A stretch of DNA of 56,905 nt, the filler included, from Sluysia triapertura (lineage: Eukaryota): the NCBI GenBank assembly GCA_046118255.1. It is 4 parts of 4 records of this genome, joined end to end, with 100 filler letters (N's around TTAATTAATTAA, not from the genome) between each part and the next. Parts side by side here need not be neighbours in the genome. Positions count along the whole stretch, not along the records: positions 44,736 to 56,905 come from JBJNIA010132512.1; 3 more parts are not named here. One strand, 5' to 3'. Below, one piece after another: positions 4,795 to 50,076 of this stretch (its first letter is position 1; each line of letters starts with the position of its first letter). The translations under genes were made by a program, and so were the position numbers. The notes beneath the pieces were generated by a model, which was not told the DNA's origin, searched no databases, and worked only from the letters and a program-made list of their open reading frames with translations.

Positions 4795-4959
4795 TTTGGA
4801 TAATTGCTAGAAGTCGGAAATTCGACTTAATTATTGTTCATATCGACAAGTCATGCTTACTTCTTAGAGTAGATTTTATGCTGACCAATTTTATTAATTA
4901 AAATTGAATATAAATTTCCATCGAATTTCATTTTTAATATTATCTAGCAATTATCCAAA
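4795..4959. repeat. Inverted repeat with perfect 17-bp arms
   Basis: TTTGGATAATTGCTAGA (4795-4811) and TCTAGCAATTATCCAAA (4943-4959), with a second inner pair GAAATTCGA/TCGAATTTC. Confidence 0.85.
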
Positions 4960-9643: not shown

Positions 9644-10120
9644 TTAAGGAAATTCAAATCTCAACCGAATATCAAAATCAAATTTATTATTTAATGTAAA
9701 TTTATTTTTCTCCTGGAAGCCTATTGCCATAAAATAATAATTACTGTCGATCGAGCTAATTGTCCGTAATATAAGATCTCTGAGAAGTCCGACTATTCTC
9801 GTAGATTGATAACCACAACTTAATTCAATGTTTTTCTTAGATACTAATTCATATGCTGTATGCCCGTAAGGACAATTATTTCCGTTCTTTACACATACCG
9901 TATTTATCAGTGGCGAATGAACAGAAAGCAATCATTTTAGTTTCGTAATCATCGTGTTTGCTACCATTAACCTCATTATAATCAATATACCTTTAACTTT
10001 ACAATCATCGTTTTTATAATCATTATGATCCATATGGTTTTTAACATTATTGACATTCTTATTATGATCATTGACTTTATACTCATAATCTTTATAATAG
10101 TTGGATTTAGCAGAATTCAT
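9644..10120 (-). pseudogene. DYK/Asp-Lys-rich repeat protein with CCCH zinc finger, copy 1 (frameshifted)
   Basis: MNSAKSNYYKDYEYK... followed, across frameshifts, by IAFCSFATDKYGMC/KNGNNCPYGHTAYEL; paralogue at 27462-27824. Confidence 0.6.
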
Positions 10121-10239
10121 AATTTATTTTGCTCTAATTTTCACCACGTTTTTTAACAAATTGGTATAACTACGTTTTTTATTAAATATTGTTTGTTTTC
10201 GGAAATAAATTGAAAAATCTTAAGTTTTCTGCCAATAAT

Positions 10240-11313
10240 TAGTTATACTTGTGATTGCTACTGTGGCATGATTGGTTGTTAATATTAGTTACACTCACCG
10301 TGATTGCAATGTAAATCACCTAACAAAAGCAATTGCTGATTGGTCATCCAACCAACAGTGTTTTCATGATAATAGTAGTACTTAATGATTTGGTTGGATG
10401 ACCAATACAAATTAACAGAAAATAGAGAGACAAACCATCATCAATGTTGACATTCATTTATACACAGTGATTAGTTATGACAACATGGATGGTGGTAATT
10501 TCTGATTTATTTAAAAATTAATATTTTAAAAATAAATATAAAATTAAAATGATAACAATAATAATAACAACAGGAGTGTTATTATTGTTACTACCACATA
10601 AATTCTTTATTTGTCTTACATCTTTGAAATTACATGATCTGTCTTTTTGAATCTTTGTTTTCTCGACGTATTTGAAAGCTAAAATTGAAAATAATATGTA
10701 TTAAAGTGTAAATGGTTAAGACTTAAGTACTTTAGAATAGTATAATGTTAAAATGAGTGATAAATGTGCATTGATGTTTTGAAAGAAGGTCATGTTTGGT
10801 TGTTAGGATTTAATGATAAAAGATCGTGCATTTGGAATGTTCGAGATGATTTAAAAGTTTGTGATAATTAATTTCGAATGTAGTTGAAATTGAATTGTTG
10901 AGAGATGAAAGATAAAATATTTTGGATGAATTTTTAATGTAATTTGATGGTATTGAATGTCACCGTGGTTTATATGTTATAAGATTGTAGATTTAAATTG
11001 ACTTTAGCGGATGAATTGTTCTAGAGAATGTAGAGGAGATAAATATGATAATGTTAAAATGTTAGAGGGTTGACAATTTAAAATGTTTTGATAAATGAAA
11101 GTTTATTTTGGTGAATGTGAAAAGAGTTGCAATATATAAATGGTTGTGAAGACTTTTACAAAGTTGTGTGGTGTTAAAACGAGTATGTTTTTAATTGTAT
11201 TGGATTAAATTGTGAATTTGGAAATGTAAGTTGTTGATTTTGGAATGAGTGTTATAAGATATATGGGTTGTAAATTTTAATAAAATTGTTAAATTTACAT
11301 GTTGGCCACCACA
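10240..11313 (-). repeat. Dispersed module B, copy 1: strand-skewed tract plus two hairpins
   Basis: Reverse complement aligns with 41442-42530 from TGTGGTGGCCAACA; hairpins 10339-10406 (17-bp perfect arms) and 10435-10495 (15/18). Confidence 0.7.
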
Positions 11314-14300
11314 TTTCCATACTCTTGGAAATATTTAAATAATTCTTTTATAAATCCTCTTCTCAATTACTTAGTATACTTCAAAAAGATTTTATCATTG
11401 TATTGTCAAATGAATATTATGAATCTTTTGTTTTATAAATTTGTAATTTTAAACGTTTCTTGAAGTCTTTTTATTATGTTAAGTTAACTCTAAACTGTAC
11501 TAATAAACTAAAAAGTCACTTAAAAATAATGAAAGAATTTATTAAATACAAAAATTGTTGATTAATAATGGTAAAAGTAAATATAATAATAAAGATACAC
11601 GATTATAATTCAAAGAAATAATTTCTTTAATTCTTTTAAACAATATTTTAAAGATATATTAATCTAGGTTTAATACTTGGATTGTTAAAAGTTAATTAAG
11701 ATTTTAAGTAGGAATTTAACACTAAAAATATCAGAGCGTTGAAACTTAGTCATTATTATCTTACTTTATAAATATTATAAATTATGATGATTTTTTTATT
11801 GTCTGGAATGTTCTCGATATTAATGTATTTTCCAAGTCGCGATGTAATGTCGGTTTTGAACAGAAAACTGCTTCCAAAAATGAATCTTTTGAATTTCCAT
11901 TGACCACTAGATATATATCTTCCTTGAAATAACTTAACGTGAAAAATCTTTGAAACCAAAATTTGCGTGACTTGTTCTTTCGCGTTCTTTTTATATGTTT
12001 TTTCTATTGCAACGTTATATTCCAGCAATTACAAATAACATAAATTATTATTTAATCTAGTGAATGTATATATAAATTATCAAATAAAAATTTGATGTGA
12101 AATAAGTTTGTTTTTTTATACTAGTAATAAAATATATAATAAAATTCGGTGAATTATTGTAAATCCATTTGTACTGATTAAAACAGAACTATTTAATTAA
12201 AATAGAAATATTCAACTTGTTATTTTATTTTAAAAATACTAAAATACATCTCATTATTTATTAAATACATTATTTACACTTAAGAATACTTTATAATTTA
12301 TAATACTTAAAAATTCAATACATTATTTACTGTGAAATTATTTATAATACATTATTTACAATGATAAATTTATTAACATTGATGATTAATCATTAGTTAA
12401 TCGTTATTTTATGACTATTTTATACGAACATAAAATATGATAAAATATGACAACATGAAACAAGTATTACACAATTAAGAGCTCCTCCACAGAATTTAAA
12501 GATAAAATTATGATGAATTTTTGCTTGTTATTATGAAGTGTTATCGTAAACTCAAATCTTAGCAATTAATTCCACTCATTACTCAATTGGAATATATATT
12601 TAACTTGAGTTTAATAAAATTCCTTATTCCTTATCCTCGTACTTTTGATTTTGAAATCCTTTTTAAAGAGGATTTTAAAAAATGATTTTTTGCACGTACT
12701 TAAACCTATGTGAAACAATTCATAAGAGCAATTTATTATAAGAAGTTGAAGCTATATAATTTGGCTTTTATATTTTAAATCCAATACACTTTACAACAAG
12801 GAACAATGTATACGTATGAGCTAAAGGTAGCAAATAATTTTGACAATTTAAAATTCGCTTTAAATTGAAGATTAGATATTTTTATTGATTCTAATGACCT
12901 TAAAGGTCTTCAAAATTTACAAAGTAAATATGAGTGTACTTTATTAAATAGAGCTAACTTCAAAACATAAAACTAATTATATTTATGATATTATAAATTA
13001 TATTTATCCTAGTATTTTTTGTTTCTTTATTGCTTCAAAATATATCGATCTTTTCAAGTTCGGGAGATAAGTAAAAGTAATAGTTTGTGGAAAATAATTG
13101 TTTTCGAAATTGTTAACCACAATATTCGTATTGTAAGTGTGCAGGAACAAGCAACAGGCCTAGAAATACAAAATAAAATTATCACTAATAATAGCAATAA
13201 TAAGTATGACAATCTGCTGTTTGCTAAAATGAAATAATTCATATAAAATGTGAATAATCTGTTATTCCTAACTATTCGATATCTTAAAAATGATAAGTAA
13301 TTAATTATCTGTAAAAAAACCCAAATAAAAATATGTAAAAAAGAAATATGTAAAAATGCAACATTAACGACAAATTGAAATAATTTCTATTTATTTGGTA
13401 TTCCTAAAAATCATCGAATTTCGAATATATAAAAGGATCGGAATTTACAAAACAGGAGTAACGTTGAAAGTCACTCATTTTTGAAGTTGTTGATCAGTCT
13501 ATTGTCAAAGATTTTTTGATTTCTCGCTGCGGAACCAATATTCGTAAGTTATTTTTCTTTTGTTTTTATCTCTTTTTAACTGGAGATATAAAATACGCGT
13601 AAATTACCTTATTTTTTCAACTCTAGTTTAGGCTAGAAACAAAATCTTTTTAAAAATCAAAAATTCATATTAGAATATATTTCTAGTAACAATTTCCTTG
13701 TGCATATCTATATATTTACTTATGTATTTATTTCATCTGTAATAAATAAAATGTATTCTACACAGTTTTCTAATATACCTTGATAGTTTTTGTTTCTGAA
13801 TTATTATTTTAACTCAAATTAGAAGTAACGTGATCGAGTAAACGTTGTAATAAGTTACAAACTAACGGTTTACGTCTGCTATTAAGTTATTTAAAGAAGA
13901 AGCATAATTAACAAAGTTCTACGAGTGGACCCTAGGAATAAAATATCTATTTGCACTGTAGGAAAGTGAATCAAATATTGTAACATAAAACCAGTACAGT
14001 GTCTTGCGATTTCTAAAAATTCGTTAACTGAAAAATACGTAATAATTGTGAAAGAATTTGTAATGTTACTATGGCCATTAGCTTATTGAATTTATTAAAT
14101 TTATAGAATTTTTTAAGAATTTTAAAATATAACATTTATGATACAATTTATTTTTAAATTGACTAATTTAAAAATAAATTTATTAAAAGAAAAATAACAA
14201 AATTCCCTAAATCTATTCATCATTAAGTTTACTACATAAATTAATGTTACTTCTTCCAAAATATGCCATGTGAAATATTTGTATGTTCCGAAATCTAAAA

Positions 14301-14349
14301 TAAAATACATAAATAATAAAAATTTGTTATGAGATTTATAAATTTTTAC

Positions 14350-14739
14350 TTTATTCGAATCAGAATCGTTGATATCACACAAGAATTTTGTCTTCAGGCC
14401 AATTTCTTTATTGATCAAATTATTCGCCACACTGAACAGTAGTTGTTCCAATCTGCTTCTATGTGATGTTGGAAAGCTGTCGGAGAGTATTGGTTCTTGA
14501 AGTTGGCTGATTGTGTGTAGCTCCAAAGTCCGTTCTGATTGGATTCGATAATTATGAACAACATGAGTAACCTTTGTTGATTCGAAGGCTTGTGTACATT
14601 GTGTATCCTCAGGATAACTTAAAATATTATTTTGATGGTCAGTGTTTGTCTCGTGCATCGAATCCAGCACCATTCTGTCTTTATTTGATTGTTTTATCTT
14701 TTCAATCATGATTACTTTTGAAACTTTATCATATAGCAT
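14350..14739 (-). CDS. Putative coding exon, unknown product
   Basis: About 130 open codons with higher GC than the flanks, ending at AAA|GTAAAA donor; no family recognised. Confidence 0.35.
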
Positions 14740-15412
14740 ACGATTAGAGATGTGCGAACAAATATTATAATTGATTAGTACTGTTCAAGTTTTCTCTTAA
14801 TTTAATAACTTAACAATTATAATTTTTATAACCTATTGGGTTCGCCAATAATTTAAGATTTATTTCCTACGGAAGACTTAATTATTGGTTTTTTGGATGA
14901 TGAATGTTTCTACGTAAAAGTTGTCCTTACACTTGTGTATAGAGGGTCCTTTAATAATTCAAGGTTGCTAGATTATTAACAAATATTTTATTTAATTCCC
15001 AACCGATTTCTTGTTAATTTCGTTAATTAAATAAATAAAGACTAGCACTTATTGTACTCTATGAATATTTTATTTTTAAATATACAAAAGTAGATTACAC
15101 AATTAAAGATATATAAATGAATGAGAGATGTATAAAAATATACAAAGAAATAATAATATAAATAATAAAATTAGATAACTATTAAGATTTTCACTTAATG
15201 TTTATTATGAAATTTTAAAATTATTTTGACCCAGAGTTAATCTTTGGGTTGTTGAAAAAATTGATATGAGTTTACGTAGATTTTGATATAGTTTAATACT
15301 ATATAAACTTATAAAAAATAGCTTACAATATTTTCTTTTGAAATTGAATTCTCCAAAACAAATATATTATTTGACCAAAAATTCTCGAGCACGGTGTTTC
15401 AAAACTTTGCCG

Positions 15413-15494: not shown

Positions 15495-15594
15495 NNNNNN
15501 NNNNNNNNNNNNNNNNNNNNNNNNNNNNNNNNNNNNNNTTAATTAATTAANNNNNNNNNNNNNNNNNNNNNNNNNNNNNNNNNNNNNNNNNNNN
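15495..15594. other. Assembly spacer (N44-TTAATTAATTAA-N44)
   Basis: 100-nt linker with stops in all six frames, identical at three places. Confidence 0.97.
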
Positions 15595-15920: not shown

Positions 15921-16729
15921 TGTATGTACAGTGATTTATAACTTTGAATTTGTATATTTAGGATATATTATTGTAAAGAATAGTAATTAATACAAGATAT
16001 GTACTGAGACTTTATTGAGGGCGTTATTCTAATTACAGCATTTTCAAAAAGAATAATAATTAGCATTTTAATTCTAAACTTAACGAATTTAATAAACGAT
16101 TTAACTTTCTTTAAAATTGAAAATAATTTAAACAATATATTTAAATTAAAAACAAATTTAATTTATTTTTAAAAAAAGGGATCAAAAATATATGAGAATT
16201 TGTTAAATTTCATAAATAGTGTAGTGTTTTATTATAATCAAATCTTGGTAGTGGTATGACAGTTTCTTTTAAAATTTCGAGTTACGGTTTAGTTAATGTG
16301 AGATCTAGTCCGCCTACTTTAGCATAAATGATTATTAAACAAAAACGATCAGATCTCGATTAATTGCATCTTAATATTGCAGATATAGAAGTTTGAGTTA
16401 AATTGTGCAAAAATAATTTCATAATGTTAGACGGCGACGAAACATTAGTATATGCGATATCATCTACTAAAAATGATTCTGCTAATTTCTGCTAACTGAA
16501 ATGCTGAAATGCTTGAAATTCTTAACATTTATCTTTAATTTATTACTTGTGTTGATACAAAATTATTGACGTATGCAGAATTACTTATTTTTAATATTTG
16601 TAATTAGAAATTTTTGTGATCGTTTTATAAATATCATTTCGAGTAATTATTTTGAACAATTATTTTTATTCTGGACAATTATTAACAGTATTGTGAGAAA
16701 AGTAAAGTAAAGAAATAGAATAAAAAGCC

Positions 16730-17460
16730 TACCTTAAAGTGAGTTCACCAACGTACTTGGCTTACCTGTTAGGGCCAGCCGTTGGATTTTCTAACAATTT
16801 TTTGAAATAAATGGAGGTTATAATAACTGTTTGTGCTGTAATTTTATATAAACTCTTAATACTAAATTTATTACTTATACAGAATATTTAATTCAATATA
16901 TTTTAATAAGGTTCCTAAATTGAACCTTTACAAATTATGGAATGATTTTAATACTTTAATGATTTTAAAACCTTTAAAAACTTTTGGAGAATTTTGTTAA
17001 GTGATTTTAATGAGGTTCGTAATAGAACCTATAATGTTAATTATAATAAAATTAAAATAAATGTATTACCAAAAACTTTATACAAAATAATTGTATACAA
17101 ATTAGTAAAATAATAATAATATATTTTAAATAGGATTGTAAAAATTAATCCACTGTTAAAATTTTTAAATGATGAAATTTAATCAGCTACCCTGAAATGG
17201 TAGCGCAATAGAAACTTAATTTTAAGTTAAATATTAATCAAGCAATTTTAAAGATTGCGGGAAACTTAACACAAAAACCTAACGATAATGTAAGTCTTAA
17301 TGCAAGCAGGTTGTAAGCGGATCCTGATTCTTCAAAAAACTGTTAAATAACTCGAAGCAGTTGTGAATTATACAAAGAATTGTAAAGAATTACAAAAACT
17401 GTGTGTAAAATTTTGTGAGTTTATGTATGTTTATATACCTTAAAATGTGACCTTGTGGCC
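16730..17460 (-). repeat. Dispersed family C, copy 1: minus-strand promoter plus spliced leader-like exon
   Basis: 16761-16790 is 28/30 identical to 53976-54005 and ends in a GTAAG donor on the minus strand; TATA and TGACCTTG at 17430-17455. Confidence 0.6.
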
Positions 17461-19738
17461 ACTATATTTTAAAACAAATTAAAGAAAATAATAATAAATT
17501 AAAGATTTAAAAATAGTGAATAATAAATATTTTCCCTTACAAAAAAGTTAAAAAATAAAATTAAAGTTATAACAATTAATATTAATAAAAATTTTTAAAA
17601 ATTAAAGATTAATATTAAATATATGCAAAAATCTTTTTAGAAATTAAAAAATCATAAATTATTCCAACTAAATTTTTTCGAATAAAATAAATAAATTAAT
17701 ATGAAATAAACTTTGATTTACAACATAATTAAATTTAAATAGTTTTATTTAACACATATGAATAATAGTTAATTTTCATTTGTATTTACAATTTTATATT
17801 TGTATTTACAAGTTTATGAATAATAGTTATTTACAAAGTTTATATAAAGTTTATTTAACAGACTATTATAAACGTTATTGTTAATTTCGTCATTTTAATC
17901 ATTTTAGTACTGCTTAATAGAGATTTATAATACTAATTTGTAATTGAATTTTATTTAACCAGTAAATTGTGTTGTTATTGATTTGATTTTCAAGAGCTTA
18001 ATTTTGGGGTGAATAATTATTGATATTAAATAAGAGAATTATTGAAAATTTATATTTGATCTAGTGAATACTTAAATAATTGAAATTCTTTTTAAGGTAA
18101 TTAAATTATTTTAAATAATTTAATAATTTTTTAAAGATAAACAATACCCTTAATAAAAGGAAAAAATACATACATATATGAAATAGTCACACATCTTCCA
18201 CAGCATCAGAACATGTGTCGTCACTATAATCTCGTAAGAGTAGTAATATTCATCATAATCAGATGCAGTTTCACTATTATTAAGTTCATCGTTTACCGGT
18301 AAATCATTATTCAGATCAGACTGAAATGAAAATAAATTATACTGTTTATAATTATACTGTTGCTTTTAGTTTTCTTCAAAACCAACTTGATCTGCAATAA
18401 ATTATACATTGTTTTACCTTAGCTTCTTTAAATGCCTTTATAACACGCTTGTAATCATTTAATAAACTTTTATAATAATAGGGTAAACATAAATAAGAAA
18501 TAATATTGTTAAAATCATTAGACGTAAACGTGTGGCATGGCACGCCTTCTTGACATAATAGAAGTAGTAAGTCTATTGTCCAAACATTAAAAATCATCCT
18601 CAATCCCACTGAAATCTTTGTGACACTTTTTGAATAATTAAGTTTGGAATATGATCCAATTGTTAAGTTGTAAAATATAAACTTGTAATTTTGATCATAA
18701 ATATTATTAAATATTATTGAATATTATTAATAATAATATTCAAAGAATATTAAAAATATTATAATTTATTATTTGTAAAAATAAATATTTAGTAAACTAA
18801 AATTAAAAAAATTAAAATTAATGAAATACATTTGTTTTAATAACTTAAAATAATATTTATAAATTTTTGTTTAAATATATTAATATTATTTCTATTAAAC
18901 AATGGTAGCCATAATTGAAATTCTTCATCTTTATGAATGAGAATTTCCAATATGTCAACCAAATTTGTTACCAATCGTCGATTAAGAAAATCTGCAGCTA
19001 CTCAACTTCTTTCATAAGGATATAAGTTGACTAGGCGACCCCTAACATTTAATATTACTACTTTTGCCAGTTAGCAAAAGTTAAAAAACACAATAAATTA
19101 ACGCAATGGAATGAAAAAGTAATCTTATGCTAGTGTTGGGTTGAGTTCATTAAGTTCAAATTAACATGAAATATTTATGTTTTAATATTTATTTTACATA
19201 AGTTTTAAGTAAGTTATAACCCTAATTTTGATAAAAGTTAAGTTTATAAGTACGATTTTCTTGCGATTTTATTGAATTAAATGTATCTTTTTGAAGTTCA
19301 TCTAAGTTGTTTATAAGTTTTCTTGAATTGATAAGTAGAGTTTATAAGTTTTTTGATATTTTGTTAAGTTTTATACGATTTTTATACGATCTTTAACATT
19401 ACCCCACTAAGTTTTACATTAGTTTTGATAATAAGTCTAAGTTTCACACTTTATTAGATAAGTTATATAAGTTTTAAGTTTGATTATAAGTTTATTTCAT
19501 TGTTATTAAGTTTAAGTTTATTGATAAAAGCTTCCCCGATTAAGTTTCGTAAGATTTTAATAAGTTTAGCTGAATTTTATTAAGTTTTTCTTATTTAAGT
19601 TTAAGATGTTTGATTCCTATTTGAGTTTTTACCATTTTGGATTATTATTTAAGTTATTAAGTTTTGATATTATGATATTTTGATATCTTTATTTTGATAA
19701 GTTATAAGTTTATATTTAAGTTTTTAAGTCTTCAGAAT

Positions 19739-19746
19739 TGGTGCAT
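19739..19746 (+). promoter_or_regulatory. Candidate primer-binding site (tRNA-Gly-like)
   Basis: TGGTGCAT, 4 nt after CA, complementary to a tRNA ending ATGCA-CCA; only 8 nt match. Confidence 0.45.
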
Positions 19747-19803
19747 GAAGTTTAATTTACTAAGAAAAAGAAAAATCGTAGAAGAAATCATTCTTTAAAT
19801 AAG

Positions 19804-21114
19804 ATGTCTTTACCTATAGAAGAATTTAGAGACTGTATGTCTCAATTTGCTAAGGATATTAGACTTGCTATGGTTTTTTCCCCAATTAAGAAAATTTTAC
19901 GGTGCAGAGGAAGAACTCTGTGACTTTCTTTTTGAATATGATAGTGTTGTAGAGGCAAATGGCTGGACTGAAATTGAAAAAATTAAGCGTATACAAAACT
20001 TATTAACTTGAGTTTCAATCCAGACTTATAAGGAGATAGATAACAATTATAAGCAAAACTGGCAAGAGTTTGTAAATGCCTTCACTGAAGAAATAGCTCT
20101 CGACGATATAGGTAAGTATTACAATAAGATGCTTGATGTAAGAAGACAAAAGAGTAAGGAAACTGTATATGAATTTGAATGCGCATTAAAGTCTTTAGTA
20201 TCTGGAGCTAAAATTCCTGATGATAAAAAGGAAAATGTTTTCATTGATAAGTTAAAAATGGCCTGCGCTCAGAGTTAAGAGCGTATGTAAGTCTAATTGA
20301 TGATTTACCTTTTAGAGATATTGTTAAAAAAATAAGGGGCATCGAGAAATCTCTTGCCGAAGAAAAAGATAATATAAGTTACGTAAGTGATAACGAATAT
20401 AACTATAAAAATAGAAATTTTAAGAAAATGGTGTCCCAAAGATTGGAGCGTAAGAACTTTAATTTTAGTGATAGATATGATAATCATTTAGATTATAAAG
20501 TAAATAATTATAATTCTACTAATCCTAATTTTAGAGGATATAATTCTAATTACAGAGGTAACAATTTTAATAGAGGAAATAATTTTAGATTAAATAGAGC
20601 TCTAAGTTATGATGATTCGCGAGGAGTTAAAAATAATTTTAGAGAAGATAACTCTCCAGCCTTTAGAAATGATAATAATTTTGGTTTTAGAAGTAATAAT
20701 AAAACTTCAGGCTTTAGTGGTTACTTACAAATACCTGCACCGAGTTGGCCAAGTTCGGCTGGTGAATATTTTGATCGACAAAATAATAGTCATAACACTC
20801 GAAATATGAGTCTTGCTAAGTTTAATGATAATAATAACTATAAGGCTCAGACAAACACAGAAGAGAATGTAATATGTAGTAACTGTGGTAAGCGAGGTCA
20901 CTATACTAGAAATTGTAGTAAATTAAGGGCTGAAAATTTTATTCAAAATCTCACCAACATGCAAATCTATTCGAAAGGGATAAGTTTTGATAGAAAAGTA
21001 AGATTTAATGACGCTAAGAATAGGAGTAAGGGACAAATAAATTATAATTATAATAAAATGCGAAATAATTATGACGAAGAAATGCACCTAGAATATGATT
21101 CTAAAGAAGAGTGA
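19804..21114 (+). pseudogene. gag: Retrotransposon Gag (capsid, Asn/Gly/Arg-rich region, CCHC zinc knuckle), frameshifted
   Basis: FYG..ELCDFL/FEYDSVVEANGWTEIEKI, WQEFVNAF and RRQKSKETVYEF (major-homology-like); CSNCGKRGHYTRNC at 20875-20916. Confidence 0.88.
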
Positions 21115-21578
21115 CAGAATATAATAAAAGACTGAATATAATTTGTTAATGAGTTCTCTAGAATAAAATTAGACGGTGATGATGATGATGAAGTTGACGA
21201 TAGATATAATAGACAAAAAGAAGAAGAATATGCATTTATAAATTAAATGTACGAGTATTATCTTGAATATTTAAAAAGAAAACAAGAGTTGAAAGATAAA
21301 GAGTTAGAAAAGGAGAAAGTGAATAATAAAAATCAAATAGATGGCAATAGTGACAATTCGAGTTTAACATCAGATGAAAATACCGACACCGATTCGATTA
21401 CCAGCGAGGAAATACAACGGATGTGGAATCAACAACAAGCCAATATCTCGAAACAAATTCAACAATTAGTGAAGATGAAGGCTCAAATTCAAGTGAAATT
21501 AGTAATTCGAATATAAGCAATGAATTTAATATAGAAAGCGAAAGTGAACCGGAACCAATAATAGTATCTGTTAATTAG

Positions 21579-21932
21579 GAGAATAAAGCAAATATACTAA
21601 AATTAACTGCAAATAAAGAACTTAATGCATTCATTTCATGTTTAAATAAGGACCGACTAAATGCAGAATATATCGAAATTAATTTAGAAAACTTATATAA
21701 ATTTGACCTAAGTCTACAAGATGGTCATAAAATTAAGTCTATTTTAGTCGAGTTTAGTAAAGATAAAAGTCCTCATAAAATTAAAGCAAGAAGACTATTA
21801 AAGAAGATTGCACTGATGGAGCGGAAGGAAACACCAAAAACCTTAATGAATATTAAACTATTAATTAATGATTCCATAAATATAGTAATGGAACTATCTG
21901 TCACTACGATAGTTAATTATAGAGTTAATTAA
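21579..21932 (+). pseudogene. Open stretch with TFIIS-N / LEDGF integrase-binding-domain-like helical pattern
   Basis: 117 open codons not in the ORF track; FISCLNKDRLNAEYIEINLENLYKFDLSLQDGHK...IKARRLLKKI; manual alignment only. Confidence 0.35.
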
Positions 21933-22320
21933 ACTGAATGACTCGAATACTATGGTTGTCAGTTTATATTTTAATGATAGAAATCTGACGTCCGATGATT
22001 TTTTAAATGATTATGGTTACCCTCTTGGAATTCATGATGATGTATTAAAAGCTACTATCGTTTATGATACAACCCTTAGTTATTCTCCTCCCAGTAATGT
22101 TAATATGGATATGGATATAAATGATAATAATGTTAAGAATAATGTTATTACTGATACAGATAATGTACAACCAGATTATTAAATGCCAACCCACATGTAG
22201 AGACGTTAATTAAGGAAACGAATACTCTCAAGAGACCAAGAAAAGAAGAGTATAGTGATCAGTTAGCAACTTCTCATTTAATTAATAGAAATAATGTAAA
22301 TTTAACCAAACTACTTTTGA

Positions 22321-22849
22321 TGGAGGAAAACTGAATTAAATATAACAAGTTTAGTTTACGCACTTTTGTCGGATAGGTTTAATAATTTTGATAAGTATAA
22401 AATATTGTTACCTAAGATTCAGGATTATAGAAATGTAATTATACAATTAACGCAACAATTAGAGGAAAATTATAGGGATAATGATATAAGTGAGTATATA
22501 GACACGGGGCAACATAAGTTAGAAAATAAGTAAACAGATTAATGCTGGATTCAATAGAGAAAAGCTTAAAATCATTATTGCCTATATATTGTTCCCATGC
22601 GATAAAGCGAAACTTCTTACTAAGGAGAGAGGAGACATGATAATAATAATTTTCATAGACAAAATACTTAAGTTATGGATTGAAAAGCAAGGCGGTTGGA
22701 AGAATATAATTAAAGCAAACTTTAAAGAAACTCTCAATAGGTTCACAAATTTATTAGGAAATAATGATAACCTATTGAATAATATATTGCCTAGATTAGG
22801 TAATTCGACAAATAATATGTTATTCGTAATTAAGGTGACAGATATTTAG
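22321..22849 (+). pseudogene. Bcl-2-family-like protein (one frameshift near 22522)
   Basis: BH4-like NITSLVYALLSDRF, BH3-like VIIQLTQQLEENY, BH1-like AGFNREKLKIIIAYILF and BH2 LKLWIEKQGGW, in canonical order and plausible spacing. Confidence 0.68.
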
Positions 22850-22871
22850 ATGGGCAAAGCGGGACAACTCT

Positions 22872-22885
22872 GAAGGAGGGGGAAG
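22872..22885 (+). promoter_or_regulatory. Polypurine tract
   Basis: GAAGGAGGGGGAAG preceded by CGGGAC. Confidence 0.7.
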
Positions 22886-23149
22886 TATCAGCAAAAATTT
22901 TCATACAGAATAAAAATAATATTGTAATGTTGTTATTTTTAACATAAGACTTACCTTAATTTTCTATGGTAAGTAGAATATTTGTAATATTTATTTGTTT
23001 AATTAGCTTGCTAGCATGCAGTACGAACACGAAGTGCATCATTTGAGAGACAAATGCAATGTAACTCGGTAGCAAAAGCAATATGTTAGTCGTAGGATTC
23101 TTAGAACGCAAAACAATGATTTTCATAAATATAAAATTTAACTTAATTC

Positions 23150-23217
23150 TAAAAGTTGGGACTTTTGAAAAACGTCGCGGGACAAATTGTGAAAAATCGG
23201 GACGTCTGGTCACCTTA
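23150..23217 (-). mobile_element. hAT (Blackjack-type) terminal inverted repeat
   Basis: Reverse complement TAAGGTGACCAGACGTCCCGATTTT with three subterminal GTCCC motifs, like the TAGGGTGACCA..GTCCCG ends of hAT-Blackjack elements; partner end not found. Confidence 0.65.
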
Positions 23218-23999
23218 AGTTTCATTAAATATTAACGTTGATTAAATTCTGCACGGATGCTTTTCGTCATCTACTGTAAATGAAGATGTAAAGATTAAAT
23301 TTTAGTTATTACATCAAAGATAAGTATTTATTATTTAATATGTCACATAGTTGGAATGGTGAACTGTATTGCAAATCTAAATTATTATTACGTATTTACG
23401 AATAATTTAATTATATTATTAATAATGTATTCATTTGTAGATACACTTTACACAACTTCGAGAAATGGAAAATCTACATACTGAAAGATTATCAGAAAAT
23501 GGGCAAGTTATAGTTGATAAGGTAATCAAAGGAGAATTTGATGAAGCAAAACTAAACAAATTTAAAAATGTTAGAATAATTATTGCTTTTTTCAGTTAAT
23601 TTAATTCAATTTAGTATAATTGTGTGCTGCACAAAAAACATTAAAACCGATCTACGTTAATGAATAACACGTTTTATGTTTAAAAACCACTGACTATAAA
23701 TCATTCAGAAATAACCATATCGTCCTCTTGCATTTATGGAGTTTTCATTTAACTGAATTTCATTCGTTTAAGTAATTCTCATGGATATTGTGCAGCAAAT
23801 AAGAAATGCTTTGATAATGCTAATAATATCTTGGAAGATTGTTTGAAAGTGAATCACAATCAGAATCTTTTTATAACAGTCATAGTAAGAATGATTTGAC
23901 TATGAAAGTATTGTAATTTACAGCTAATTGTGCCTTACATACAGAAGTACATGTTAAAGAATATATTGAACACCTTCTCAAGCCATTAATTGACTTTTA

Positions 24000-24057
24000 T
24001 TAGGTATCCTTATCGGCTATTTTATTTTAGGAGGTCTTAAATTAAAATCACCCTGTA
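24000..24057 (-). mobile_element. Tc1/mariner-type terminus
   Basis: Reverse complement TA-CAGGGTGATTTT..., i.e. TA target plus CAGGGTG TIR start; single end only. Confidence 0.45.
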
Positions 24058-25086
24058 GGGAATTCATCACACAAAATCCATCACATTTCATCGCATAAAA
24101 ACACTTCACATGTACACAGATTATTAAACAAACTATTAAACTCATTCAAAAACAAACATGACCATCACATCTAATTATCATTAACTATCGCTATTATTAT
24201 TACAGTTCAAATCGTATTAAAATATATATAATAATTATATTCATTATCGTTATATAATATAAATATCAAATAATAACTTTTATAATAAATTTCATAACAA
24301 ATTTTTACAACAACGTTTCAATATTAATAAACATAATATCCACATAATTGCTATCATTATTATTATTTCTTTTATCCTTATTATCAACCTATCTTTCTAT
24401 TTTTTTTGTTTTTTTAATATGGTTTTTTTAATACGACATAAATTAGAAGCAGCAATTAAATTCTTAAAATACCATTACAAAAACACAATCGCAAATGATG
24501 CCAGTGAGATGAAATGGATCAAAACATAACCGAAGTAGCTAGGTATGGTTAGTAATAACAATCGATATAATTATCCGAATTCGATTTGGTATTCAGAATT
24601 TCATCACGATTTTGCATCAACAAAATTTAATACTTTCGAATTTCAGAAAGTGTCATTCCAATTACGTTATATATTCGTACTTTAAAATACGGTTACATGA
24701 ATAATAACAATCAATATGGTTATTTTTCTGTTCAGTCTGTATTCAAATTAAATATGATTGTGAAATGTTTCGATAAGTTTTATGGAAAGATGTGTGAAAT
24801 ATATTGTGTAGAGTCTCAAACACTTATTTGTAATTATATAACCAGAGATCAAATATGTATCACGGAATCGTAAGGCAGTAAAGTATTCTGTGAAACCCCT
24901 TTCGAAATAAATTCGGTAACGAAATGTTCAACACAAGATCCTTGTGATGTTTAATGTTTATACGATACATATTGTGTATTAATTTTATATTCATACCCAA
25001 TATGCGCAGAAATAGAGTTTGAAATATCAAATGGGCAGTGTTTTTCGGAAATAATATTGTACAATGCATAATAAAAGCTTATCACT

Positions 25087-26326
25087 CTTTCAAAAGGCGT
25101 ATTCAAACAATTTCTTGAAGGTAGCATTACATTTTTACCTACGTACAAATTTGAACCCAATACAGACACTTATGCTATTAGCGAAAAGAATAGAATAATG
25201 TGGTATGGTAAGAAATGCCAACAAGTTTCTTATAACAGTGTTATGAAACTTAAGATTAGTGATCATAAACCCATTTATGCTCTGTTTAAAGTTGGAATCA
25301 AGAAAATTAACAAAAACAAACGTGCAAAAGTTCATAAGGCAATAATTCGTCAAGTCGATATGCTGCTTAACTTGAGTTTGCCACAAGTGGAATTAGATAA
25401 ACATGATTTGTTTTTCGGGAATGTCCATTTTTAAGAATGTCGAAATATAGGTAAAAATGAATTCTCTTATCGATTTAAAGAGATACAAAATAAACCTAGT
25501 ATTCCATAATGGCTAATTGTTGAACCTAATGTCGATACAATTAATCCAGGTGAATATAAAACACTAATATTCCAAATTTTTATTAATGCTCAATGTGTGC
25601 GTGAATTGAATACACTAGCGAAAATTGAAACTATTTTAGTTCTTGATTTGCAAGGTGGAAAAGACTGTTTCATTACAGTAACTGTAGATTCGGTCCCAAC
25701 ATGCTTCGGATTACCTCTTAATTATTTGATTCCTTTAAAAGTACCTGTAACTTCTCTAACGAGAGAAGAAATTTACGAAAAGGGTAAGCCTTATTTGAAC
25801 AACCATTATGTGTCAAAACAAGGATTAGCAAATATAGAATTATTTACGGTTCCTAAAGAAGTTATCGTTATGATTGATTATATACTAAAAAATATCAAAG
25901 AGGAGGAACTGTTTGCCAGGCCTGGAATTCATCCTGAAATTCAAGGTATTCGTGAACAGTTAGATACAAACGGTTACAATGCTAATCTATCTGATTTTAC
26001 GGTTCATTCAGCTGCAGAAGCATTGTTAGTTTATTTAGCAACTCTTTATTTTCCAGTTATTCCACAAGAATTTAATCGAGATTGTATAGTAGCGTTTCAC
26101 AATTACGACGATTGTATTCGAGTCATATCAAAGTTCATTCCACTACATTACGTCGCTTTTGTGCAAAGTTTTAGAATATCGGAACAGTAATAGTACTAAT
26201 AAAGAATCTCCCAGTATATTGTTTGTAGATGTTTTATTTAAAGCAGCTCCAGACAGAAATGCATGTGCACAATTTTTACGTCAGTTTTTGAATGTTAATA
26301 GAAAGTCACAATTCTATTGTAGTTAA
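25087..26326 (+). pseudogene. OCRL: OCRL/INPP5B-type inositol polyphosphate 5-phosphatase, 5'-truncated intronless pseudogene (end of phosphatase domain, ASH, RhoGAP-like)
   Basis: FLEGSITFLPTYKF, ISDHKPIYALF, LPQVEL, ILVLDLQGGKDCFITV, PTCFG, VPKEV, LFARPG, HSAAEALL; in-frame TAA at 25432 and 25507; frameshift near 26160; PxWCDR motif absent. Confidence 0.9.
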
Positions 26327-26427: not shown

Positions 26428-27446
26428 ATGAAGATATTAAAAGTTCTGTATTTAAATTACAAGTTTATATTTGGTAATAAAATTTTCCTACAAATATACG
26501 TATCCGGTTTTCCAACATATTCTGCCCGACCGTATTATTGGAGTGTATTATATGGATTTAGTTTGTTATCACTTATGGTTACTTTCATTGGTATTGCTAA
26601 GACTATGTTTCATATGCCATTTTATAATTATACCATTAATAACTTTGAACACATTTTATTAATTATATCATTATTTATTTATTTTAATATATTAAGTCTC
26701 TTAGTACATGAAGCATTTTTTACGATTTTATGGTTTCTTAAACCTCATTTATTGAATGTAGCATGGAAATTAGTTTGTGCACTAACCGTTTCATTTAATA
26801 CTGCTTTGTTTTTAAGCACATTATTAGCTTTGATACCAAGTAAAAATATTTCGTTCTCAATATACTTAAGATATCACCCATTCATTTAATGATGTGGTCA
26901 TTATTAATTTTTGAAGAAATTTGCGATTTAAGTATTATACATAAAAATAAACCCAGTCTGATTTTTATTGTTAGCTTAGCAGCTAATTTTGTTTTTTGGT
27001 TACTATCAATTATTATCATTTATATTAGTTGTATTAGACCAACTTGGTTTCGAAGAAAACTAAAAACAACAGTGGATTATAGACATGATAATTTACCATC
27101 ACTTCAGTATAAAATGGTTGTTAACGATGTATATTTCCCACAAGAAAATCCTTGTTCCAGTCATTTCCTTAAGCACGTAGTTTTATTATTGTATTTGACT
27201 ACACATTTGTTCTATTATTTTATTTTTTTCAATAAAATAACAAATTTTGTAGTTTTGTTAAATTTCTTAATCGTTGCAGGCCTTAAGCCTATTTTGTTAC
27301 ATCTAGTTGAATTTAAAGTAAAATGTTTTTGTCTAGTTAAATTTTGTTTAATTGATGTTCTAAATAACTTTCACAAAAAAATTAAATTATATAAAAATAA
27401 GAGTAGGATTTATAAATTTGAATATTTTTCGCCCTCCACACAATGA
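26428..27446 (+). pseudogene. Multi-pass membrane protein split into two ORFs at a TAATG overlap
   Basis: Two abutting ORFs (153 and 185 aa) with about 5-6 hydrophobic segments; family not recognised. Confidence 0.45.
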
Positions 27447-27461
27447 TGATTATTATTATGA

Positions 27462-27824
27462 TCTAACTATTATAAAGATCATAAAGTTAAGGAGTGTAAA
27501 GATGCTAACGATGAGTTTAAAGATTATAAAGACGATGAGTATAAGGACAAAGAATATAAATGTAACGACAATAATGCAAAACACTATAAAGATAACGATT
27601 ATCAATTTAACTCTTATAAAGATGATGACCACAAAGTTAAAGATTATAAAGATGCTAACAATGAGTTGGAAGACTATAAGGATGACGATTATAAAATTAA
27701 ACGTAATAATAATGATGTTTTCGAAGCTAGTATAATCGCCTTTTTCCCATTCGCTAAAGATAATTATAGAATATACTTGAAGAATTGAATTTATTGTCGT
27801 TAAGTCCATACGGCCTGCGAATTG
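27462..27824 (+). pseudogene. DYK/Asp-Lys-rich repeat protein with decayed CCCH finger, copy 2
   Basis: Frame not in the ORF track: SNYYKDHKVKECKD...DYKDDDYK...IAFFPFAKDNYRIYLKN*IYCR*VHTACEL aligns with 9644-10120. Confidence 0.6.
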
Positions 27825-31667: not shown

Positions 31668-31767
31668 NNNNNNNNNNNNNNNNNNNNNNNNNNNNNNNNN
31701 NNNNNNNNNNNTTAATTAATTAANNNNNNNNNNNNNNNNNNNNNNNNNNNNNNNNNNNNNNNNNNNN
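31668..31767. other. Assembly spacer
   Basis: N44-TTAATTAATTAA-N44. Confidence 0.97.
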
Positions 31768-37069: not shown

Positions 37070-37975
37070 TGTAATGTTGGGATTACTCAACTGTTGTTGG
37101 GTAAGAAATTAGTGAGAAAATGGGGAACTGGAAAATCTTGGAACTGAAGAAATGATGGGCAAAACATAATTAAACATTATTGGAATGAGAATGACGAAGA
37201 TGAAAGAATCTATAATCATTTTGAGAATTGAGGAATACGTTGCAATTCCAAAGACACTTCTAAGTTTTTGGTACCCTTGAGGAAATTTGAGATTGGCCTG
37301 GAAACATTTTGAAGAATTAAAGTTTTCTTTAAGAACAACTGAGACATTTGAATAATCGTGTAAAGTGTTTGAAAATATTTTTAAAATATTTGTGAAACGA
37401 AATCATTATTAAAAAGACATTTAATACATTAATAGTTCGCATAGATAATTAGAATGGTGAAAATGAATCCATGAGTTCCTTGTAAAGTACCAAATAATTT
37501 TAGAAACTTGAGAGCCTTTAAGCATAAAATAGAATAAAGTCTAAAAAGAGATTAATTAATTAAAATCTTAATTAACCTAATTAAAGAAAAATACATTTTT
37601 ATAAGTAACATTTGAATGTGGAATGCTACGGCAAAGTTGTGACCTCGTATACATTTATTTTGGTTAGATCTTTAGATAAAAATATAGTTTGAACGAGTTC
37701 AGGCAAGGAAAGCCTTAATAATGAACAAAGTAAAATTTTAATTCTCAATTATAAAATGTTAAATGAATTGAATATGAGATAGAGAAGGATCTAAAATAAA
37801 TTTGAAATGTTTATAGAATGATATGTTCTATAATTTTTTCCGTTAAAAATTTAATTGCATTCTAAAAACAAACGTTAAATTCATTATTCTTATGTGTATT
37901 GTTAATACTAATGATTTTTAACTTAATGAGAAAAGTAATTTAGAATATAAGCCGCGTGGAATAGAGAAAAGTAAT
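37070..37975 (+). repeat. Dispersed repeat family A, copy 2
   Basis: Reverse-complement homologue of 3290-4345; TGTTGGG at 37075. Confidence 0.75.
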
Positions 37976-44635: not shown

Positions 44636-44735
44636 NNNNNNNNNNNNNNNNNNNNNNNNNNNNNNNNNNNNNNNNNNNNTTAATTAATTAANNNNNNNNN
44701 NNNNNNNNNNNNNNNNNNNNNNNNNNNNNNNNNNN
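44636..44735. other. Assembly spacer
   Basis: N44-TTAATTAATTAA-N44. Confidence 0.97.
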
Positions 44736-47383
44736 AATAATGCTATCAATCTCAATTTAATATAATTCAACTCTCGTATTAGAATGATCTTTATGTTTTT
44801 AAAATTTAATATTACATTGTCTTTATAAAATCTCATTTTAAAATGACAATTTGTTTAATTTTAATTTAAATTAGTTACTATTTGTTATTAAATTTTGAAT
44901 TTATATTAACTCTATTAAATATCATTTTAAATTGATATTAAGCATTATAATCTTGATGATAATGATTTAATTTTATTAAAATAATAAATTTAAATTAAAT
45001 GAATTTTAGATTTTATTTTAAATTAATTTTACTTTAAATAGATCTTTATTAAATGAAATTTTAGGATCCTGTTAAAATAAATGAATATTATGTTACAATA
45101 TAAATATAAATATAAAAATATAAAATATACAAAACGTTTAAATTCCAAAAGTTACGTAATTTTCAAAAAAGATTAATAAGTTATGAATTGGAATTAAAAA
45201 ATATTTAAATATTAATGGTAAGTTTGGGTTCAGCATTATCTAGTTTACCAAAGTTAAATTTCAATATAAAATTATTGTAACGGAGCATCAAATAAGAAGA
45301 CAAAGACAAAGTATATGGAGACGACAAAATGTTTAATAAATCAGTTGGAAAACCAATGAGACGAAGATGTCCAACACGTAAATATAAAACACAGAAGAAC
45401 CATGAAGTATGAAAAGCAAATAAATAATTATACTGCAAATTAAGGTCTATTAAATTCGTACGCAAATGTGCTTAGAATAAGGTCGTTCGTCAGAAAATTT
45501 TTGGAATCTTTTTTATAAGTACTTCATAAGATTTGTGAAATGTAACATTTGTCACATTATTATTTTATATTTCATACTCAGTCTAGTTTCTGCATTGTTT
45601 ACTTCCAAGAAATATTCTGGACTTCCATAATTTTATCATTATGTTTTGGAATTCGTTAAGATAACGTGTCATATGAGATGGTTTCGATTACACTTTTATT
45701 CTTTTAGATTTTAATTATGTCTCGATAAACACTGGAGTAGTTTATCGAATAGTTTATAAAGTTGTTTCATATAAATTTTTTAAATAATTAATTTTTTTTC
45801 AATTTTCATTTATCTAAGTACAATTCAAGTAAATAATTAATTTTTATGCATCACAGTACTTCAATACACAAATTGTAAGGTAATAAAAATAATTTAATCA
45901 AAATAGCTTAAGATTTGAAGCGAGAGGAATAAAAAAATTTCTTTCAAAAAATTGTATAAATCCTTGCATGATCAGTTGAATAAGATGCTCAAAGGTATTT
46001 TTAAATAATAATCATGAGTTTTACAAAAGTTTAATCTTGCATATCTGAATTATTTATTTATTTATACAGCCTATACATATTGCTGTATGATTATGGCATG
46101 ATTTTACTATAAAATTTAGATCTACGGAAATAGAACTTCTAATCAAAATGCATTTCAACTTAAGTAAAAAATTAAAATAGCAAACTTTAATACCTTTATA
46201 CCATTACATTAAAAAATATTTTTTAATTATAAATGTACATCTCGAGCTAGACCACTTAATAATAGAACGTTTATTATGAAATCTTTTATGATTTGATAAT
46301 TTATCATTTATTTTAGTTCATTAAGAACATACAAAAAGTTTTTCCATTTTTTATTATGAAATTTTTATCTGTTTACTTAATTACCAAGCATAGCAAAAAT
46401 TATAAATAAAAAATGTCTAATTAAATGACCAGTTTAATTTCGCTATAATTAATAATTAAATAATTAAAATTAATAATTAAACAATTATTTTAAATTAGCT
46501 AAATTAAACATTCTTTTCTCTGACAAAATATGTTATATAATTTCTCTACCGTTTGCATTTTTTTCCAAATAGTTTATTTTATTCAAATAAATCAAAGTTA
46601 AAAACAAGTAATTGTTGCCCATAATTGTTCAATGTTTGAAACAACGTTATAGACAAACTGAAAATTTTCATTGGATAACAAATATAGAATGTAGCGATTA
46701 TGAATATTGATAATATTACAAATATTTATTCTAACATGATGACTATTTATTTTTAAGATAAATATCTAAATGAATTTTTATGAATTTAAAGTTTTTTACT
46801 AAATAATTTCTATTTCATTAATTCTACAGTGGTTTTTTAATGAAAAATATCAATATATAAATATAAAAAGCTTATTACGTAGAAATATTTATTATTATAA
46901 GAAAAATAATATGGTAAATTAAAAGCTGTAATTGTAATTAAAATGTCAATCACATCTAGCTATTGTTAAAAAACAACTTAACTAAGGAAATCGGAAGTTA
47001 TGGTTGAAAAATTAAACTAAAAATGCATTCCATAGCTTGACATATTACTGATGATACTTTAACATACGCCAAGTCTTAACCTAAAGTGTGAAGGAAATTA
47101 AGCATTAGCGTTTATGATTGATAAATATATTTTTACATAACAGAGATGATTTAAAGAATAATTTTCAACTAAATTAATTTTTTGTTTCCTTGAGTCTAAA
47201 AAAATTAGAATGCTAAGCTCTTTTGTGTTTACACTCAAAGAAGAGAACATCGTAAGACAATTATTGACGGTAAAAATTAAGGTATTAGAGAAGGTTAACT
47301 AGACGCTCAGTAGTGTTGGGGTAAAAAGGCCTAAAAGTGCCATTTGGGAAAATTGAATATAATAAAAATGAAATTGTTAGACG

Positions 47384-47455
47384 GGGTTGATAGCTCAGTG
47401 GTAGAGCAGTCGAACTGCACAGCGATGGTCCCGGGTTCGATCCCCGGTCAGTCCA
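47384..47455 (+). tRNA. tRNA-like gene or pseudo-tRNA of uncertain isotype (Ala-like by G3:U70 and TGC; Cys-like if read CT-GCA)
   Basis: Paired acceptor GGGTTGA/TCAGTCC, D arm GCTC/GAGC, T arm CCGGG-TTCGATC-CCCGG, A and B boxes present; anticodon arm is non-canonical. Confidence 0.8.
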
Positions 47456-47459
47456 TTTT
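47456..47459 (+). terminator. Pol III terminator (T4)
   Basis: TTTT directly after the discriminator base. Confidence 0.55.
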
Positions 47460-47570
47460 ACGAAGTCTAACAAAAATATTAAGAAGGAATAGTAATTCAA
47501 TGAATAAATAGTAAGAAAATAATAATAATTATGATTCACTCGGACATCTCAAAACCGCTCTTCAGCATCA

Positions 47571-47690
47571 ATGAAATTTACAAGTGAGTTAATAAATAAA
47601 TTTACACTAAATTGGATAAGACAGAATGGAGGATAACCAAAAATAAAAGAAAAATTTAAAAAGGATACAGAGTCCGAAATAAATGTTGTA
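47571..47690 (+). pseudogene. Bcl-2-like BH2 remnant
   Basis: ELINKFTLNWIRQNGG*PKIKEKF; TAA at 47634 replaces the second BH2 Trp; aligns with FIDKILKLWIEKQGGWKNIIKANF at about 22650-22725. Confidence 0.6.
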
Positions 47691-50076
47691 TCTTAAGGAA
47701 TTTCCAAAAATTACTAACGAAGTTGATTTTTATGCAAAATCAGACAGACCGATACTACCCAGAGGTAATACTAGCCAGATATTCTAACTCAGGTACGGGA
47801 TCTTTATTTATAAAGAAAGTATATTAATTCTTATTAAAATTAAATAACATGCGATATTAGAGTTACGAAAATAATAATGTCGGCTGACACTTATTTTGAA
47901 ATCTTCGAGACAAATAATAGTGAAAACAAATAGTGATGTAAAGAGAAACCATAAAATATTATCACTTATTTACAATTAGCTCTTGCACAAACTGTAATTA
48001 TAAATTAGATTGAATCATATATAAAAGTGTAATATCTACAGATTATTATGTGATTGATTTATTTGAATGGTTTATTAAACATGAGACATTCTCGCTGCAC
48101 AGTTATCAAGCCAATTTAACAATTTATTTTCCTGATAGTCAATTTTACAATTTTATTATATTATAATAGATTGATATTGTTTTTTTTGAATTTACAAATA
48201 AACACAAAATAATTAGACGTTTTAGTCTTTATAATAAAATAAAATTTGAATTTTAAATTAATATTATTTACAATCAAATTACATCTTCATATTTCTTCTG
48301 TCAATATGTCAATTATTAATTCTTTGATTTTCTTTAAATTTGTAAAGACAAACAATAAAAAAGAAAGACCAAAATATTTAAATGAAGTAATTTTTATTTA
48401 ATGTTTATTTTTGTAAATAATTTATTAGAAAATAATTATTGAATGTATAAACAATTAAAACATGTCACACATATTAACGCATAAATCGATCTTTGAAATA
48501 AATTTTTATGAATGTGATTTCCAAGCAGTGATGCAATAACGTAATTGTGACGCCTTGTCTCATCTTCGCAAAATTAGTTGATAAGGGTCACCTAAAGTGT
48601 GCGGTTTATTTTTTCTACGAAAATATAAACGCTTTTCGAACTTCTTATACCAAGAACTTAAATAAAACTAACTATATTTCTTTAATAAAATAATTAGGGT
48701 TAGTTATTTGGAAAATATTTATTAAAGTAATGACCATCTGTAAATACGAGATGGGTTACTACCCAATAACAAAATTAATCGGTCTTGCACGAAGACTTAA
48801 ACACAGAACTAATTAATAACAATGAAACTACTAATTTAAACTACTAAATCAGAAAAATTTACCTGGTCAAAATGTATCAATAATATAATAATCGATAAGA
48901 TTTTGCTAAATCAGGTGCTCCAACTCTAGTGCACTAGGTGAAGATTCTAAAATGATTTTATCATTGGCTTAGCCAGCTCAAACATTAAAATATTTTATGT
49001 AAGATTTTATACATTATATAAGTAAGGAGACTTAAATAACAATTACTTACGAATTTTTCTAAAATTATTTGATAATAAATTATCCGAATTTCCAATGATT
49101 ATATTCTCAGCGATTGCTACATGAATTGATATGGATTATGACCGAACCATAGAAATAGTTTGAATTGATAAACAGGAGATATTTTACACATAATACATCA
49201 TGAACCTTTCATCAAGAACTGTTTTTAGCTCTTAATTTTATTTTGTTCTGTGTAGTTTATTTAAGAAATCATGGACACTACTTAAAGTAACGATTATGAT
49301 ACTACTTTTAAATAATGATGTAATCGTTCCTATTAAATGACATGTTCTCTATTGTAAGATATTGAGGCAGTGCACTGTGTCGCTGGGTAAAACTAATGCA
49401 TACATAATTTTGGTTATATGAACCGAGCTACAGAAAATAAAGGTTGATTCAAGAAGATCAAATGGTTTAAAATCTTTGATGGTATTCTGTTTAAAAAAAT
49501 TACTAACATAAAATGTTTAAAGAAATAATGAATCCTCCGACGATATAAAACTTACGCACATGATATTAATGACAAATTTGCGAAAATATTGAAGTTATAT
49601 AAATATCTTATGTGTTACAGCTAATATAGCTAATATACACAATTACGCGATAATTTAATATTAGTTTTTAGGTCATTTATTTTAAATTGATGTTTATCTG
49701 CTGTGATTTTATGGGATACATTAATAAAATAATACAAATTTCTTGAAATTAATATTTTAATCAAATCGATATACATCAACTTCAACTTATAAATGTATTT
49801 TAACACGATTTTTTGGCTTTGTAAATTGCCTTTAAAAAATAGAAATATGTTACGTAAGATTTTAAACATTAAAAACTTTGCGAATAAAATTAACGATAAT
49901 TATTTTTCTCACATAGATATTCCAATATAAATAAAAGTTTCAAGATGGTTCTATATTGCCAAATGTTCATTTAAATTGAATCTGCGATCGTTATTAGTGT
50001 TTTTGTGAGTTCCTTTTTCCTTCTTCTTGTGTAGTTTTTTATGTGGGTATTTGTTTATATATTGTTTTACTTTAAA

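Follow-up and report, generated by a model that had tools for sequence, protein, structure and literature searches.

We analyzed a stretch of 56,905 nucleotides of Sluysia triapertura DNA, hereafter called the window, in which two loci about 25 kb apart hold Bcl-2-like sequence, namely locus A (19.8-22.8 kb) and locus B (47.57-47.83 kb). The G+C content ranged from 15 to 35% per kb, and Pfam searches detected fragments of TRAF, OCRL-like and other eukaryotic genes; such fragments in AT-rich DNA make an animal genome likely. A 12-base linker with stops in all frames, amid runs of N, was found at 15495-15594, 31668-31767 and 44636-44735 and is a scaffolding artefact. Several other features were recorded. 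A gene fragment with a TRAF-type MATH domain (8148-9099, minus strand; Pfam E = 9e-20), which looks spliced, lies on the strand opposite to locus A and 10 kb from it; MATH domains also occur in the Burro elements discussed below. Pieces of an OCRL-like 5-phosphatase with ASH and RhoGAP parts (25075-26190) fall in two long ORFs with scant room for introns, the phosphatase motif having by eye an apparent short deletion, and are perhaps a retrocopy. An Asp/Lys-rich tandem repeat ORF with a 15-nt period (27462-27788) had no Pfam match. An inverted pair of 74 bp (18320-18393 and 27036-27108; 81% alike, E = 1e-12) is a dispersed repeat, and the inverted repeat pairs at 3585-4252 and 37171-37743 (227 and 100 nt, 73-75% alike) are probably duplicates of a single old element.

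The gag-bearing element at locus A and the probable insert behind it

Locus A, on the plus strand, opens with a gag broken by frameshifts and a stop (19804-20275), of which positions 20012-20275 matched Pfam Retrotrans_gag with an E-value of 0.0039, under the curated cut-off. An ORF with an Asn-rich stretch and one CCHC knuckle at approximately 20872-20922 (Pfam zf-CCHC, E = 0.0012) spans 20251-21114, and two ORF pieces (21247-21932), charged and coiled-coil-like by eye, gave no Pfam match at the cut-off and, within 21579-21929, no atlas match of at least 0.9. The following segment (21934-22092) is a ubiquitin/SUMO-like lead only: its best named atlas cluster was PF11976 Rad60-SLD (0.80, rank 5) and three of its four named atlas rows were ubiquitin-like, but neither Pfam nor PDB supported it, and its score against a ubiquitin profile (94 viral sequences) was reached by 59-61 of 500 shuffles. 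No MATH, env, protease, RT, integrase, BIR or LTR was found at locus A, and the blastn and nhmmer matches listed included no second copy of an LTR ahead of gag. The missing env, protease, RT, integrase and LTRs, like the length below 25 kb, may reflect truncation, since this copy ends at the insert described below.

The last domain of locus A (22333-22829, plus strand) is a decayed Bcl-2-like domain and the top profile hit in the window. The profile comprised 34 distinct natural segments chosen from 139 pattern-matched loci. With hmmsearch, the domain scored 11.8 bits, a value reached by one of 100 shuffled windows; in a frameshift-aware alignment it scored 29.6 bits, reached by none of 34. 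The order and spacing of BH3, BH1 and BH2 are present, with one frameshift near 22531 and the BH2 Trp codon at 22676, and the upstream fit was independent of BH2: when the last 45 nt were held fixed, the gain from the upstream part was matched in 1 and 0 of 400 shuffles. For BH1-alpha6 alone these counts were 3 and 17 of 400, and BH1 alone was at chance level as a local match. Both loci share with the Bcl-2 family the W-I-x-x-x-G-G signature of BH2 and the helix preceding it, locus A having in addition the BH3-BH1-BH2 spacing. They depart from the family in that locus A has no Pfam hit and a BH1 devoid of the NWGR letters, and that locus B has neither BH1 nor BH3; no transmembrane tail was seen at either, both being broken.

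Searches with the Bcl-2-like part of locus A returned no Pfam or PDB match and none in a word-index protein search. Its open piece had no phmmer match among 1.84 billion proteins, and a metagenome scan with the same piece produced 274 pattern matches, none of them confirmed. A single-sequence model reached a pLDDT of 40; with this model, Foldseek returned BCL-2 in two of seven rows (E = 7.2), fold searches found no PDB or BFVD match at E 0.001, and a wide search had a best Z of 4.2, with Bcl-2 absent among the best 50; at this model confidence the fold searches were uninformative. Two large IMG/VR contigs (130 and 148 kb) were seen to carry Bcl-2-like ORFs (L001:209-790, plus strand; L028:499-1035, minus strand).

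Sequencing depth was examined over 16.5-27 kb in 350-bp bins by placing contigs from two runs, X1 and X2, the latter from another organism; summed depth is no copy number. Over 664 and 498 nt, the X1 contigs showed 0 differences from the flanks of the window. Over 19.3-22.8 kb, including the Bcl-2-like bins, X1 depth was 3984-14902, compared with 83-118 over the OCRL-like region at 24.9-26.0 kb. The corresponding X2 values were 12-43 and 0-5.4, with pieces 85-90% alike, one of which (record 11) spans 20356-21746; the OCRL-like pieces at 25075-26190 were hardly covered by X2, whereas the retroelement was. No contig bridging gag to the Bcl-2-like part was among the matches listed, but the even block of depth over gag and Bcl-2-like bins is as expected of a single repeated unit. 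The 5' region of the element (19200-19750), which is made up of short TAAGTTT-like words, also had repeat-level depth in X1 and coverage in X2. Further very high X1 bins at 23871-24572, 16500-16850 and 17904-18254 (172645, 122094, 42524 and 32453) belong to other abundant repeats.

Burro elements are giant gypsy-like LTR elements of planarians with a published BCL2-like cargo (PMC6431247). Excerpts of that paper give their order as retrotrans_gag, two to three CCHC knuckles, Smc, MATH, a Ubi2/SUMO-like PF11976 domain, BCL2-like, env, protease and RT, and mention decaying fragments in Dugesia japonica. Compared by domain description and not by sequence, locus A resembles Burro/GYPSM1 of dugesiid planarians in having retrotrans_gag, CCHC, a charged region, the SUMO-like segment (as a lead only) and a BCL2-like domain on one strand, as well as many copies, decay by stops and frameshifts of the kind reported for Dugesia japonica, and a very AT-rich host. 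It differs in having one knuckle instead of two or three, in its length (about 3.5 kb, against 25-30 kb for Burro), and in the domains and LTR listed above as not found. We infer that locus A functionally resembles the 5' portion of a Burro-like element, a likeness that falls short of established membership. Adintoviruses, like locus A, place a Bcl-2-like cargo in an animal mobile element (Bcl2 homologues; excerpts of PMC8502044), but adintoviruses and Polintons/Mavericks are DNA elements with PolB and integrase, in place of which locus A carries gag and a knuckle. In our literature search, Burro was the only LTR element with Bcl-2 cargo; excerpts of PMC8532177, PMC13238120, PMC4678618 and bioRxiv 10.64898/2025.12.11.693146 added nothing on cargo. 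The initial annotation had proposed that this cargo is a feature of a retroelement family and not a one-off insertion. Because the Bcl-2-like bins match the high X1 depth of the gag bins and are covered in X2, and because such a cargo is published for Burro (in the excerpts of PMC6431247), this proposal is supported, by locus A and not by locus B.

Immediately behind the Bcl-2-like domain, a 389-bp insert (22830-23218) carries at its termini a perfect inverted repeat of 10 bp, which extends to 13 of 14 positions with one gap, and has TTAA at both outer ends and four GGGAC words inside. It is short, with no ORF of note. Its depth in X1 was very high (88282, vs 5505 and 7795 in the Bcl-2-like bins) and in X2 low (2.85, vs 22 and 20.1). 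No copy of it upstream of gag was among the matches listed, and no joint across it appeared in the 15 of 291 joints listed. A perfect pair of 10-mers is by itself not rare, as a second, all-AT pair occurs in the same 600 nt; the case for a MITE therefore rests on the GC-bearing ends and the depth. With its small size, non-coding content, terminal inverted repeats, subterminal GGGAC words and very high depth, the segment is very likely a MITE-like insert. Its ends may be hAT-Blackjack-like or Kolobok-like; it departs from these tentative labels in having no 8-bp target duplication and TTAA on both sides. A literature search for the end motif returned nothing relevant.

The probable BH2-like remnant at locus B

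Upstream of locus B by 115 nt lies a tRNA-like gene with an irregular anticodon arm (47384-47455, plus strand; Rfam RF00005, 48.3 bits, E = 9.4e-09; tRNA-??? in ARAGORN), which may be Cys-like. Its A and B boxes look intact, a T4 run stands behind it, and its flanks (47372-47474) pair mutually over 9-10 bp in a predicted fold (z = -2.0); it may be a pseudogene, the head of a SINE or an odd tRNA.

At locus B itself (47571-47636, plus strand), the peptide LNWIRQNGG followed by TAA, on which the initial annotation had based a second BH2 remnant, is present in frame +2, with its Trp codon at 47613 and the TAA at 47634-47636. Together with the helix before BH2, approximately 21 codons match the BH2 region weakly, and the TAA sits at the position of the second Trp of Bcl-2 family members. 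The 21-residue piece matched positions 80-99 of Pfam PF00452 with an E-value of 0.15 and 13 bits, under the curated cut-off of 31.4, and longer frames had no Pfam match. Bax (E = 0.58) and A1 (E = 0.79) were the best two of 14 PDB sequence rows, and the peptide found no match in the word-index protein search. The hmmsearch score was 5.8 bits (rank 3), reached by 4 of 100 shuffled windows; frameshift-aware alignment gave 23.6 bits (rank 2 in the window, the next being 19.1), reached by none of 34. The hmmsearch hit at 11523-11735, tried as a third Bcl-2 match, was riddled with stops, disappeared in the frameshift-aware scan and was rejected. The motif W[ILVFM]xx[NQHKR]GG occurs within the window at loci A and B only and was present in one of 150 shuffled windows. 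Profile and shuffle results make the BH2 motif of locus B unusual, with a level of about 1-4% per window, and all of its individual scores fell under library thresholds. Likeness between the peptides of loci A and B over 8 residues was reached in 14 of 150 shuffled windows and over 24 residues around BH2 in 145 of 150, so that beyond 8 residues it was at chance.

Behind the remnant, a stretch in another frame (47681-47827, plus strand; tblastn E = 0.35-0.56 in the window) starts 44 nt past the TAA and is similar to the tail that follows BH2 at locus A. Scores at least as high as its 38 (47681-47812) came from 30 of 2000 shuffles, from 14 of 879 natural tiles and, when the query was shuffled instead, from 20 of 2000 trials; the match was noticed by inspection before this statistical test, and requires a 44-nt insertion and a frameshift. 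Within its last 15 codons, seven residues are identical to those of locus A, four of them differing synonymously. By codon count only, and with the insert at 22830-23218 omitted, the locus A frame stops at the same column as locus B, an agreement that presupposes a TTAA target duplication and carries little weight in stop-rich DNA.

From these weak protein-level scores, locus B is probably a real relic derived from a Bcl-2 sequence. That it is instead a chance motif in AT-rich intergenic DNA, locus A alone being real, seems unlikely, although several observations fit such a reading. DNA comparison of the two loci was at chance level (see below), and the BH2 pattern WIx[QE]NGGW alone was a poor guide, since only 1 of 16 matching viral loci was a Bcl-2. 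The unrelated segment 11523-11735 scored 5.9 bits in hmmsearch, against 5.8 for locus B. Nothing Bcl-2-like was found upstream, where BH1 and BH3 at the right spacing scored at chance (205 and 140 of 400 shuffles), also with one long gap allowed. What argues against chance is that no shuffled window reached the frameshift-aware score, that the stricter motif turned up in a single one, and that the tail match supplies a further signal (about 1.5%), located where it would be expected and with synonymous differences at four of seven shared residues. By eye, a possible BH1 was seen on the far side of the tRNA-like gene, upstream of it, which would make the tRNA a later insertion whose length fits; this reading was at chance level in every test and was rejected.

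A Bcl-2 origin could also have come by another route, through a host exon or pseudogene or through the cargo of a Polinton/Maverick, which we regard as quite improbable. The BH2 of locus B is nearer to Bax and A1 than to locus A, with seven consecutive residues identical to A1, and an acceptor-like CAG stands ahead of it at approximately 47566 (by eye). No gag or pol frame had a Pfam match at 44.7-50.9 kb, no LTR was found near locus B, and the Bcl2 homologues of adintoviruses (excerpts of PMC8502044) provide a precedent. However, no BH1 exon scored upstream on the plus strand, no GT donor follows the stop, and the tail of locus B resembles that of locus A; nor was a Polinton gene found nearby.

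Sequences shared behind the two BH2 motifs

According to the initial annotation, both BH2 motifs are followed at a similar distance, about 180 nt at locus B, by a tract resembling a polypurine tract (PPT). The words GATATT...CGGGA are indeed present behind both motifs, beginning at 22841 and 47778, and the pattern GATATT.{5,25}CGGGA occurs at these two places only within the window. The distance from the Trp codon to GATATT is 165 nt at both loci, not about 180, and CAGATATT stands exactly 165 nt behind the Trp at both. At locus B (47778-47820, plus strand) the words GATATT (47778), CGGGA (47796) and AAAGAAAGT (47812-47820) are codons of the tail stretch and give no supported PPT. An exact 8-mer was present on 1.1% of 113395 diagonals, and the 165-nt offset stays unexplained; when a nearby GC-rich 5-mer was added, in a test defined post hoc, the diagonal of locus B was the sole pass (1 of 113335). 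The alignment of the two tails runs 47 nt off the diagonal of the word alignment, and the two cannot both be real.

A pairwise DNA alignment of the two loci did no better than controls. Under three scorings, 72, 138 and 144 of 500 shuffles, and 189, 168 and 262 of 698 natural tiles, scored as high as 47540-47830 against 22600-22890. A composition-adjusted banded alignment on the Trp-codon diagonal was matched or beaten on 1120 and 643 of the 3866 control diagonals. A wide-band test (30 and 50 of 925 over 230 nt; 270 and 141 of 927 for the part before the insert) was not counted as evidence. Neither blastn nor nhmmer gave a DNA match between the loci among the matches listed, and identity beyond the shared words was 9/60 and 15/60.

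At locus A, the words fall inside the inverted-repeat insert, which has its own depth profile, and so does the purine tract that had been proposed as the PPT (22872-22885). At locus B, positions 47812-47819 are eight purines, in a window whose plus strand holds 69 purine runs of at least 9. No LTR or insert end follows the words there; a pattern for insert ends matched 9 times near locus B, against 12.7 expected, though this pattern misses the gapped left end of locus A's own insert. A purine tract directly before an LTR with a second upstream copy was found at neither locus. The shared priming tract is thus most likely a coincidence, and the words behind BH2 appear to be non-homologous, belonging to an insert end in locus A and to tail codons in locus B.

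GGGAC with a purine run resembles gypsy PPT contexts, the tract of locus A being a 14-nt purine run after GGGAC, and the high X1 depth behind it could represent solo LTRs, the shared offset adding to this case. Yet that both loci are 3' ends of retroelements, in which a Bcl-2 ORF precedes PPT and LTR, is very improbable, as the tract lies within the inverted-repeat segment, a second LTR copy ahead of gag is absent from the matches listed, X2 covers coding and 5' non-coding parts and drops at the insert, the DNA of locus B is at chance beyond the words, and the Burro order in the excerpts of PMC6431247 has BCL2 followed by env and protease, with no PPT.

Proposed origin of the remnants and implications for Bcl-2 cargo

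The explanation that best accounts for these observations, which we hold at about even odds as a whole, is that locus B is an orphaned Bcl-2-like scrap and locus A the 5' part of a Burro-like gypsy element, broken by stops and frameshifts and truncated or split by a MITE-like DNA insert immediately after the Bcl-2-like domain. Locus B would be a dead piece of about 250 nt, made of the BH2 helix and a frameshifted tail and left from a copy, older or more distant, whose cargo belonged to the same broad class as that of locus A, BH2 being its only part in common with Burro as described in the excerpts of PMC6431247. The active ancestor may have made a Gag with SUMO-like and Bcl-2-like domains. 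By analogy, the Bcl-2-like domain would most likely have bound the BH3 helices of host death proteins and kept the expressing stem or germ cell alive; damping of cell death by the BCL2-like cargo is put forward as a hypothesis in the excerpts of PMC6431247. Neither remnant is able to make a Bcl-2-like protein now.

In its best-supported form, this explanation would add little to what is published for planarians, where both the BCL2-like cargo of gypsy-like elements and their decayed fragments are already known (excerpts of PMC6431247). If true, it would mean that the cargo lineages are too diverged to align as DNA, which would point to long residence under protein-level selection. Whether Burro elements meddle with host apoptosis is an open question there, and a dead 250-nt scrap makes it no more testable. 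In practice, when purines form a tract behind a cargo ORF, that tract may belong to a later insert.

There is also a slim chance that the two loci represent a compact, pol-less gag-SUMO-Bcl-2 family, distinct from the giant Burro polyprotein and with the Bcl-2-like domain last, locus B being a second, deeply diverged lineage that kept motif and tail while its DNA became saturated. Should the host, in addition, not be a dugesiid planarian, gypsy-like elements with anti-apoptotic cargo would extend to a new animal group.
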